Below, in pieces: positions 7,486 through 59,744 of a stretch of DNA of 59,744 nt. Under the pieces are notes generated by a model. The model saw only the letters and a list, made by a program, of their open reading frames with translations, did no database searches and had not been told where the DNA came from. The stretch comes from Escherichia coli (GTDB lineage: Bacteria > Pseudomonadota > Gammaproteobacteria > Enterobacterales > Enterobacteriaceae). Each line of letters opens with the position of its first letter. Position 1 is the first letter of the stretch. Where the stretch lies: the NCBI RefSeq assembly GCF_003334255.1, contig NZ_QOWU01000029.1; one strand, given 5' to 3'. The position numbers were made by a program, and so were the translations under genes.

Positions 7486-9023
<1,538 letters not shown>

Positions 9024-24244: not shown

Positions 24245-24715
24245 CTACTCTTCTTCCACCGCTAACTGCGCGAAGCCGCCATTTCCTTCCCAGCCTTCCA
24301 GTCGTTGATAAACGGTTTCTACCGCATCTTTAATCGGCTGGGTCATCGGGTAGTAAAAGCCGACGATATCCGGCTGAATGCCGAGGAAAATCACTTCGCC
24401 AATATCTTCTTTCAACTGGTCGATAAGGTAATTCAACGGCATGTTATGGGTAGTCATCATAAACATCTCGGCGATATCATCCGGGTCGATGATGCGGATC
24501 TCGCCGGGGTTTAGCCCCATATCCGTGGCGTCGACAATCAGCAGTCGTGTCGGGCGCAGTTCACGGATAGCGACGATGTCGTTTTCCGGTGCGCTACCGC
24601 CGTCAATCACCACCCAGTTACCTTTCGGCGCGGCGGCGCACTTTTCCGCCAGCAGCGGACCTGCGCCATCATCGCCCATCATGCTATTGCCAACACAGAG
24701 TAAAACGTCAGTCAC
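24245..24715 (-). CDS. hycI: Hydrogenase 3 maturation endopeptidase HycI, 156 aa
   Basis: ORF track; last gene of the hyc operon. Confidence 0.93.
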   Translation of the reverse strand: MTDVLLCVGNSMMGDDGAGPLLAEKCAAAPKGNWVVIDGGSAPENDIVAIRELRPTRLLIVDATDMGLNPGEIRIIDPDDIAEMFMMTTHNMPLNYLIDQLKEDIGEVIFLGIQPDIVGFYYPMTQPIKDAVETVYQRLEGWEGNGGFAQLAVEEE

Positions 24716-58253: not shown

Positions 58254-59291
58254 ATGTTTTCCGCATTGCGCCACCGTACCGCTGCCCTAGCGCTCGGCGT
58301 ATGCTTTATTCTCCCCGTACACGCCTCGTCACCTAAACCTGGCGATTTTGCTAATACCCAGGCACGACATATTGCTACTTTCTTTCCGGGACGCATGACC
58401 GGAACTCCAGCAGAAATGTTATCTGCCGATTATATTCGCCAACAGTTTCAGCAAATGGGTTATCGCAGTGATATTCGGACATTTAATAGTCGGTATATTT
58501 ATACCGCCCGCGATAATCGCAAGAACTGGCATAACGTGACAGGAAGTACGGTGATTGCCGCTCATGAAGGCAAAGCGCCGCAGCAGATCATCATTATGGC
58601 GCATCTGGATACTTACGCCCCGCTGAGCGATGCTGACGCCGATGCCAATCTCGGCGGGCTGACGTTACAAGGAATGGATGATAACGCCGCAGGTTTAGGT
58701 GTCATGCTGGAATTGGCAGAACGCCTGAAAAATACGCCTACCGAGTATGGTATTCGATTTGTGGCGACCAGCGGCGAAGAGGAAGGGAAATTAGGCGCTG
58801 AGAATTTACTCAAGCGGATGAGTGACACCGAAAAGAAAAATACGCTGCTGGTGATTAATCTCGATAACTTAATTGTTGGCGATAAATTGTATTTCAACAG
58901 CGGTGTAAAAACCCCTGAAGCAGTAAGGAAATTAACGCGCGACAGGGCGCTGGCAATTGCGCGCAGTCACGGAATAGCCGCAACGACCAATCCGGGTTTG
59001 AATAAAAATTATCCGAAAGGCACTGGGTGTTGTAATGACGCAGAAATATTCGACAAAGCGGGCATTGCTGTACTTTCGGTGGAAGCGACTAACTGGAATC
59101 TTGGGAATAAGGATGGTTATCAGCAACGCGCAAAAACAGCCGCATTCCCTGCGGGAAATAGCTGGCATGACGTAAGACTGGATAATCAACAGCATATTGA
59201 TAAGGCACTTCCTGGAAGAATAGAACGTCGCTGCCGTGACGTTATGCGGATAATGCTACCGTTGGTGAAGGAGCTGGCGAAGGCGTCTTGA
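58254..59291 (+). CDS. iap: Alkaline phosphatase isozyme conversion aminopeptidase, 345 aa
   Basis: ORF track; signal peptide and M28-type peptidase motifs; immediately upstream of the CRISPR array. Confidence 0.94.
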   Translation: MFSALRHRTAALALGVCFILPVHASSPKPGDFANTQARHIATFFPGRMTGTPAEMLSADYIRQQFQQMGYRSDIRTFNSRYIYTARDNRKNWHNVTGSTVIAAHEGKAPQQIIIMAHLDTYAPLSDADADANLGGLTLQGMDDNAAGLGVMLELAERLKNTPTEYGIRFVATSGEEEGKLGAENLLKRMSDTEKKNTLLVINLDNLIVGDKLYFNSGVKTPEAVRKLTRDRALAIARSHGIAATTNPGLNKNYPKGTGCCNDAEIFDKAGIAVLSVEATNWNLGNKDGYQQRAKTAAFPAGNSWHDVRLDNQQHIDKALPGRIERRCRDVMRIMLPLVKELAKAS

Positions 59292-59313
59292 TGGGTTTGA
59301 AAATGGGAGCTGG

Positions 59314-59646
59314 GAGTTCTACCGCAGGGGCGGGGGAACTCCAAGTGATATCCATCATCGCATCCAGTGCGCCCGGTTTATCCCCGCTGACGCGGGGAAC
59401 ACACATGAATGTCGGTTCAGACCGTGTTTTTACCCGGTTTATCCCCGCTGGCGCGGGGAACACGGAATGATATTTCAATAAATAATTATAACAATCGGTT
59501 TATCCCCGCTGGCGCGGGGAACACCCCTCACACCGATTCGCCAAACGGTGGAGAAGCGGTTTATCCCCGCTGGCGCGGGGAACACAGCCGGGCGAAATTT
59601 TGATTCATCGTGATGACCGGTTTATCCCCGCTGGCGCGGGGAACAC
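59314..59646 (-). CRISPR. Type I-E-style CRISPR array end: five 29-bp repeats with four 32-bp spacers, plus a degenerate terminal repeat and a 31-bp spacer-like segment on the iap side
   Basis: Repeats cggtttatccccgctggcgcggggaacac at 59374, 59435, 59496, 59557 and 59618; the first carries G to A (gctgacgcg); a degenerate unit lies at about 59314-59342; + strand shows the reverse complement of the I-E repeat, so transcription is inferred on the minus strand. Confidence 0.93.
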
Positions 59647-59744
59647 CCTGAACGGTGGGGAAAAACCCCATAAGCGCTAACTTAAGGGTTGAACCATCTG
59701 AAGAATGCGACGCCTCGGTGCCTCGTTAAGACGATGCCTCGCGT

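Follow-up and report, generated by a model that had tools for sequence, protein, structure and literature searches.

Five intact type I-E CRISPR repeats near the end of the window (the whole 59,744-nt stretch of E. coli DNA that was analyzed) are followed by sequence in which no repeat can be recognized, and the question that this locus raises is whether the array really ends there. An earlier note on the window offered three explanations: a short, strain-specific array with a diverged leader, an array truncated by deletion, or an orphan array in a cas-less background. The E. coli type I-E leader is AT-rich, contains a promoter and an IHF site, and lies beside cas2.

The window is E. coli chromosome, with its last 25 kb (mutS...rpoS...cysDNC-iap) matching many complete genomes at 99.8 to 100% identity, and RefSeq genomes have iap and a CRISPR array annotated at the position that corresponds to the array in the window. 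The array end comprises two features:

59313-59341, minus strand, degenerate terminal leader-distal type I-E repeat (GGAGTTCTACCGCAGGGGCGGGGGAACTC), adjoining the iap stop codon
59342-59646, minus strand (crRNA sense), leader-distal block of CRISPR2.1 (CRISPR-I), with five 32-nt spacers and five intact 29-nt repeats

The intact repeats start at 59374, 59435, 59496, 59557, and 59618 with a period of 61 nt, and the degenerate repeat is in register, 61 nt ahead of the first of them. The partly palindromic 29-nt repeats, the 32-nt spacers, and the location downstream of iap identify a type I-E array. The repeats, which have pairwise identities of 88 to 100%, read CGGTTTATCCCCGCTG, then G or A, then CGCGGGGAACAC on the plus strand. 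The crRNA-sense repeat, GTGTTCCCCGCGCCAGCGGGGATAAACCG, is on the minus strand, and this orientation together with the degenerate repeat at the iap end demonstrates that the high-coordinate side is leader-proximal, as the earlier note had deduced. In complete genomes the leader and cas2 are located on that side. The fifth intact repeat (59618-59646) is the last; scanning both strands with up to 8 mismatches allowed revealed no additional repeat copies in the window, confirming the description of five intact repeats followed by exactly 98 bp (59647-59744) without one. A search of positions 59000-59744 against Rfam at the gathering score gave no match, a result that is uninformative for such short repeats. 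The 98 bp have a GC content of 54.1%, close to that of the whole window (53.3%) and unlike the 25 to 26% of the true leaders, adjoining cas2, at nine sequence-checked loci that are introduced below. Thus, the segment is neither AT-rich nor leader-like, and both observations of the earlier note stand.

The five spacers, the fifth of which carries AGCCGGGCGAAATTTTGATTC, are the same set as in strain Z1323CEC0012 and a subset of the sets in BS74R-D and MLI104K2. This exact spacer set in combination with the orientation of the insertion sequence in the window was not found in any complete RefSeq genome; the best full-length matches to a 495-nt query were 97.3% identical and came in two pieces. Leader-distal spacer content differs among near-identical loci (window positions 59403-59524 compared with the loci of G1/2, MLI104K2, and ECCHD184). 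Spacers beginning AGTGCTGG and GGAATGAT are both present in MLI104K2 and BS74R-D and are both missing from ECCHD184. The window and Z1323CEC0012 have only the one beginning GGAATGAT, and G1/2 has only the one beginning AGTGCTGG. This variation is consistent with repeated losses of single units.

Most of the 98 bp proved to be the end of a mobile element:

59670-59744, minus strand, terminal 75 nt of IS186 at the transposase-stop end, 100% identical to the K-12 and G1/2 copies
59670-59691, IS186 terminal inverted repeat, ATAAGCGCTAACTTAAGGGTTG

In relatives, the 1,337-bp element carries the inverted repeat ATAAGCGCTAACTTAAGGGTTG, 22 to 23 bp in length, at each of its ends; past this repeat the window reads AACCATCT. 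There were no differences over the full 1,337 bp between the K-12 copy that was compared, which is located between mokC and dnaJ, and either of the two copies in G1/2. The transposase gene would be on the minus strand, past the window end. In relatives its product is named an IS4-like IS421-family transposase in RefSeq and matches the NCBIfam model NF033592 for the IS4 family with 133 bits, compared with a cutoff of 115. The window contains 75 nt of the element, and we infer from other genomes both that the element is complete and what lies downstream of it. In a megablast search of complete E. coli genomes, the 98 bp had matches at 8,808 places in 2,250 of 5,426 genomes, with a median of 3 per genome and with 848 of the places on plasmids. 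Being present in multiple copies on chromosomes and plasmids is the behavior of a mobile element and is unlike that of a leader. K-12 has 3 matching places, and it carries 3 copies of IS186 (insL) (PMC3032704, Table 3).

The remaining part of the 98 bp belongs to a spacer that the element has split:

59647-59669, minus strand, leader-distal 23 nt (CCTGAACGGTGGGGAAAAACCCC) of an interrupted 32-nt spacer that reads CCTGAACGGTGGGGAAAAACCCCCTCTTAACT in full on the plus strand
59658-59669, no strand assigned, IS186 target-site copy GGGAAAAACCCC, 12 bp, the core of the hairpin described in the earlier note

At ten related loci (L006 to L015) the opposite flank of the IS is GGGAAAAACCCCCTCTTAACT, joined directly to a repeat, and in a genome that retains the cas genes the other half of the spacer would meet the element at the junction ...GTTAGCGCTTAT / GGGAAAAACCCCCTCTTAACTCGGTTTATCC. 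Removal of the IS and of one copy of the 12-bp duplication from these sequence-checked loci restores the exact 32-nt spacer. Both IS ends are flanked by GGGAAAAACCCC in BS74R-D, P13-6, HSP425, and others of the ten; the window itself includes one target copy, and the paired copies were read in those loci. Taking the IS ends as C...G gives a duplication of 10 bp, GGAAAAACCC. In G1/2 the missing 9 nt and the second duplication copy are found on the inverted side of a rearrangement described below. The unsplit repeat-spacer-repeat is present in one piece, at 100% identity, in strains C10, OSUCMP42NDM, and NCTC9041. A blastn search of 50,697 phage records with the rebuilt spacer, at E values up to 1, gave no protospacer match.

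The hairpin reported in the earlier note is present. The sequence at 59654-59670 is ggtggggaaaaacccca, within which TGGGG-AAAAA-CCCCA (59656-59670) could fold into a stem of 5 bp around an AAAAA loop, and the stem-loop was predicted in the minimum-energy and the centroid structures alike. Reconstruction of the spacer from the flanks of the IS demonstrates that this hairpin is the IS186 target. Other IS186 sites are GGGAGTGATCCC in K-12 and GGGTTTTACCCC upstream of cas3, and the pattern G3-4 N5-6 C4-5 fits each of the three distinct IS186 sites that were examined. The target consensus attributed to saiSree in 2001 reportedly consists of at least four G residues, N3-6, and at least four C residues, and it is these three distinct sites that back it in this analysis. 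The motif alone is unremarkable: GGGGN5CCCC occurs twice in the window, where 0.6 occurrences would be expected, and two or more were counted in 16 of 100 shuffles. Its sole other occurrence in the window, GGGGTTTAGCCCC at 24506-24518, where open reading frames overlap on both strands, is a potential IS186 target that is unoccupied. The three sites agree with the preference of IS186 for GC-rich targets noted, with citation of Chong 1985, in PMC3903273.

These results leave little doubt that the 98 bp are the 23-nt stub of a split spacer followed by the first 75 nt of IS186, and that the element breaks into an array that does not stop at this point. The earlier note was right to see something abnormal at this end, namely an IS186 that splits a spacer. 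The splitting of an E. coli CRISPR-I array by IS186 is in itself an already known, ordinary event.

To place the junction in context, complete genomes with the same junction were surveyed. The exact junction of the window (spacer 5, repeat, 23-nt stub, and the same IS end) was found in 19 of the 5,426 complete E. coli genomes that formed the census set. Counts based on at least 80% coverage, which concerned the intact spacer (2,393) and simple insertions (275 and 74), were dropped because CRISPR repeats from any array merge into one "place" under that threshold; one-piece rows at 100% and direct inspection of loci were used instead. Twelve of the 19 genomes have a simple insertion, in which the array resumes after the IS with 12 to 22 more repeats, followed by the leader and cas2. 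Nine of these were read at the sequence level (BS74R-D, P13-6, ETEC1716, LZHX12, IAL7250, NCTC9100, NCTC9087, TO6, and ET846) and are the source of the true leaders cited above, and three (UMNF18, 160-11H1, and X14-3) were assigned by annotation only. The suggestion of a short array is thus not borne out, since the window stops 75 nt into an IS beyond which arrays resume in these relatives. The earlier note had also named further repeats just beyond the window end as evidence that would speak against its reading. They are present in these 12 relatives, but about 1.28 kb beyond the end rather than directly after it.

The other 7 of the 19 genomes (G1/2, G6/7, G8, 52F4, MLI104K2, ECCHD184, and 64EVA) have an inversion, with the order iap, about five spacers, IS (minus), cas3 to cas2, leader, leader-proximal array, IS (plus), hok, and cysH. 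The inverted block, of about 9.6 kb, consists of the cas operon, the leader, and the leader-proximal array, and the second, opposed IS belongs to the site upstream of cas3. Writing S for the spacer site and U for the site upstream of cas3, the junctions in G1/2 are those expected for an exchange between the IS copies: S-left, IS, and the reverse complement of U-left at one end, and the reverse complement of S-right, IS, and U-right at the other. In a genome that retains the cas genes, the junction of the IS on the cas3 side would be ...GCGCTTAT / GGGGTAAAACCCCGCGTACTG. BS74R-D represents the uninverted state with both IS copies. Among the possibilities in the earlier note, truncation by deletion came closest, in that the distal block is cut off from its leader. 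What cuts it off is a 1.3-kb insertion or, in these 7 of the 19 genomes, an inversion.

Several of these loci have undergone additional changes. In MLI104K2 (L004, 27497-32556 and 18003-23960) the second IS186 is bordered on its outer side by GGGATTTCTCACCGCC, after which come hydN-hypF-norW rather than hok-cysH, a sign of another rearrangement associated with IS186; the annotation of this strain lists cas3, casA, and cas7e as pseudogenes. In the inversion strain ECCHD184 (L001, 22410-24098), tnpA, tnpB, and tnpC of the IS66 family split the leader-proximal array after four repeats. An internal cas deletion is common to BS74R-D (L006, 16057-16701, for example), IAL7250 (L010), and HSP425 (L015). 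It brings a short cas2e (WP_240726065.1) up against a casA fragment and removes cas1, cas6e, cas5e, cas7e, and casB. The spacer IS is in the minus orientation in two of these three strains and in the plus orientation in one.

A layout without cas genes, in which iap, the same spacers, and the same 23-nt stub are followed by the IS, hok, and cysH, was found in 261 of the 5,426 genomes. In the deletion-layout loci that were read, the IS is oriented opposite to that in the window, with its transposase-start end at the stub and with TGGTATTA after the inverted repeat. Identity between the deletion-layout genomes and the window extends only to 59691, where the inverted repeat ends. In this layout GGGTTTTACCCCCGCGTGG and then hok would be expected on the far side of the IS. 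In strain HSP425 (NZ_CM136999.1; locus L015, 12426-20082), a plus-oriented IS occupies the same spacer position and is flanked by the same 12-bp duplication. Another IS186 lies in direct orientation upstream of cas3, and the two copies still enclose the array and cas genes. This strain was the sole full-coverage match to the direct-orientation query among the 5,426 complete genomes. HSP425 and the deletion layout, compared with the window, demonstrate that IS186 occupies one spacer position in both orientations.

IS orientation matches the outcome, with opposed copies accompanying inversion and direct copies accompanying cas loss. Counted as genomes, which are not independent events, opposed copies are uninverted in 12 and inverted in 7, and direct copies are represented by 1 intermediate and 261 deleted genomes. 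Two opposed copies can persist together stably, at times with inversion, and direct copies are nearly always seen after collapse to a deletion. One acquired spacer with a G4A5C5 stretch would have made the locus an IS186 hot spot, and this spacer has been hit in both orientations.

The distribution of orientations bears directly on whether the window could come from a cas-less strain, in which recombination between two IS186 copies would have deleted the leader together with the leader-proximal array and the whole cas operon, so that a single IS links an orphan array to hok-cysH. Such a layout is common, as the count of 261 illustrates. Two of its representatives, Z1323CEC0012 and 1332KP, have the five spacers of the window, its direct-repeat precursor exists in the form of HSP425, and an IS186 route to it was proposed by Almendros et al. 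in 2014 (PMC3903273). However, the IS has the opposite orientation in every locus of this kind that was read, and identity with the window ends at 59691. Cas genes are retained in 19 of 19 genomes with the IS orientation of the window, none of which is cas-less even though some have internal cas deletions or pseudogenes. Thus, the orphan layout suggested in the earlier note does exist, but with the other IS orientation, and it is very unlikely to be the state of the genome from which the window comes.

Two other readings take the 98 bp to be an element in their own right. The proposal that they are a strain-specific, diverged, GC-balanced leader of an array that truly has five or six units draws on their location where the repeat orientation predicts a leader, which is their only likeness to a type I-E leader. 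The window segment differs from one in GC content (54% compared with 26%) and in consisting of mobile-element sequence without similarity to it. Seventy-five of the 98 nt are the end of a multicopy IS at 100% identity, with plasmid copies included. The remaining 23 nt belong to a spacer that is known intact elsewhere, and the true leader of the related cas variant, at 26% GC, adjoins cas2. In local alignment with the true leader the 98 bp scored 7, compared with a shuffle mean of 7.3 and with 365 of 500 shuffles scoring as high. The earlier note had allowed that an AT-rich leader with a promoter might yet be found in the segment, but no sigma-70-like site was found in 59647-59744, and the GC content is as given above. 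The diverged-leader reading, already refuted by the IS186 identity, retains a negligible probability. It is also possible to view the GGGG-AAAAA-CCCC hairpin as a functional element at the array end, either a terminator or a protein-binding stem-loop, because a G+C-rich stem of 5 bp and a loop of 5 nt are predicted. However, the hairpin is part of a spacer that was acquired in the ordinary way and sits in register with the repeats on either side, and the 98-nt segment showed no excess of folding stability over shuffled sequences (z = -1.19; as good a fold in 26 of 200 shuffles). Furthermore, there is no T-run after the stem, a terminator-like site was not found, and the one documented role of the hairpin at this locus is as an IS186 insertion site in both orientations. 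A functional hairpin is therefore extremely improbable, if slightly less so than a diverged leader.

The preferred reading remains that of an interrupted array. An IS186 of the IS4 family, an element of 1,337 bp, entered the G4-A5-C5 stretch within one spacer of the iap-proximal array, duplicating 10 to 12 bp, with the transposase gene and crRNA transcription pointing in the same direction. From the relatives, the AT-rich leader, the remaining array, and the cas genes are expected to lie past the window end. The source genome probably has the leader-proximal array, leader, and cas genes directly after the IS in native order, although only with moderate confidence. It is less likely, with roughly one chance in three, that the block of about 9.6 kb with the cas genes, leader, and leader-proximal array is inverted between two opposed IS186 copies. 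There is only a slight chance of any other state beyond the window.

The inversion and the deletion may both have arisen by homologous recombination between IS copies. Intramolecular transposition from the IS upstream of cas3 was considered as an alternative source of both. The four junctions expected from this alternative do not differ from those of two independent insertions followed by homologous recombination, and therefore the junctions cannot separate the two routes. The existence of uninverted genomes with both IS copies (12 opposed and 1 direct) indicates that the two-step route is sufficient.

The apparent end of the array may also reflect the limits of the data. The window starts with a minus-strand tRNA cluster, comprising a 19-nt 3' fragment of tRNA-Arg (11-29), tRNA-Arg(ACG) (145-221), and tRNA-Ser(GCT) (225-317). 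Because it starts in this cluster and ends within a multicopy IS, the window may represent an entire short-read contig delimited by repeats, in which case the array could appear to end simply where the contig does.

The split spacer is presumably destroyed and non-functional, and at least 1.3 kb of IS would stand between the leader promoter and the five distal spacers. Because these spacers are cut off from the leader, their expression would need read-through or transcription from within the IS. Scanning for promoters and terminators, both at the array end and within the IS of G1/2, gave results at chance level, so that read-through into the distal spacers is neither supported nor opposed. If the source genome is inverted, the five spacers in the window would be a leaderless block for which the IS186 transposase gene is the sole possible origin of sense transcription. 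A single sigma-70-like site was found near the array, on the minus strand at 59494-59467 in crRNA sense, within the AT-rich spacer GGAATGATATTTCAATAAATAATTATAACAAT. With 9 of 12 matches, and 0.3 such sites expected, it is probably fortuitous, although transcription of the two oldest spacers could start from it.

Arrangements of IS186 at iap-cysH have been described previously (Almendros, Mojica, Diez-Villasenor, Guzman, and Garcia-Martinez 2014, mBio, PMC3903273), with arrangements A to I distinguished. As in the genomes analyzed here, the article has IS186 within a CRISPR2.1 cassette, a second IS186 between cas3 and hok/sok, and GC-rich hot spots. It also has recombination between IS186 copies, through which the array is shortened and the leader and cas-E genes are lost. 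There are three differences from the text of the article. Its hot spots are "mostly within the repeats," whereas here the target is a G4A5C5 run in a spacer. The words "inversion" and "inverted" do not occur in that text, whereas seven complete genomes here are inverted. Its double-IS intermediates are hypothetical (AH1), whereas here they are represented by HSP425 for direct copies and by twelve genomes for opposed copies. An inverted cas layout between IS186 copies was not found in a search of the full-text literature. Relative to that text, the spacer hot spot, the real double-IS intermediates, and the inverted cas layout go slightly beyond what was described, as refinements of a known process. 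Insertion of IS186 at lon is similar in its repeated, position-specific entry into a short G-run/C-run target and in its 12-bp duplication (given as +12 bp in PMC3861542, Table 1). However, a promoter is lost there, whereas here a CRISPR array is split and a recombination partner is created.

For annotation, the array in the window should be regarded as split by an IS, rather than as short or as leaderless by divergence, and its source is probably not a cas-less strain. Spacer counters and CRISPR-typing tools that halt at the IS undercount spacers in such strains. The locus is a natural example of how the sequence of a spacer can itself attract IS186. Across E. coli lineages, the orientation of the insertion relative to the second copy matches whether the cas genes are inverted or deleted, which refines the published picture of IS186 at this locus.
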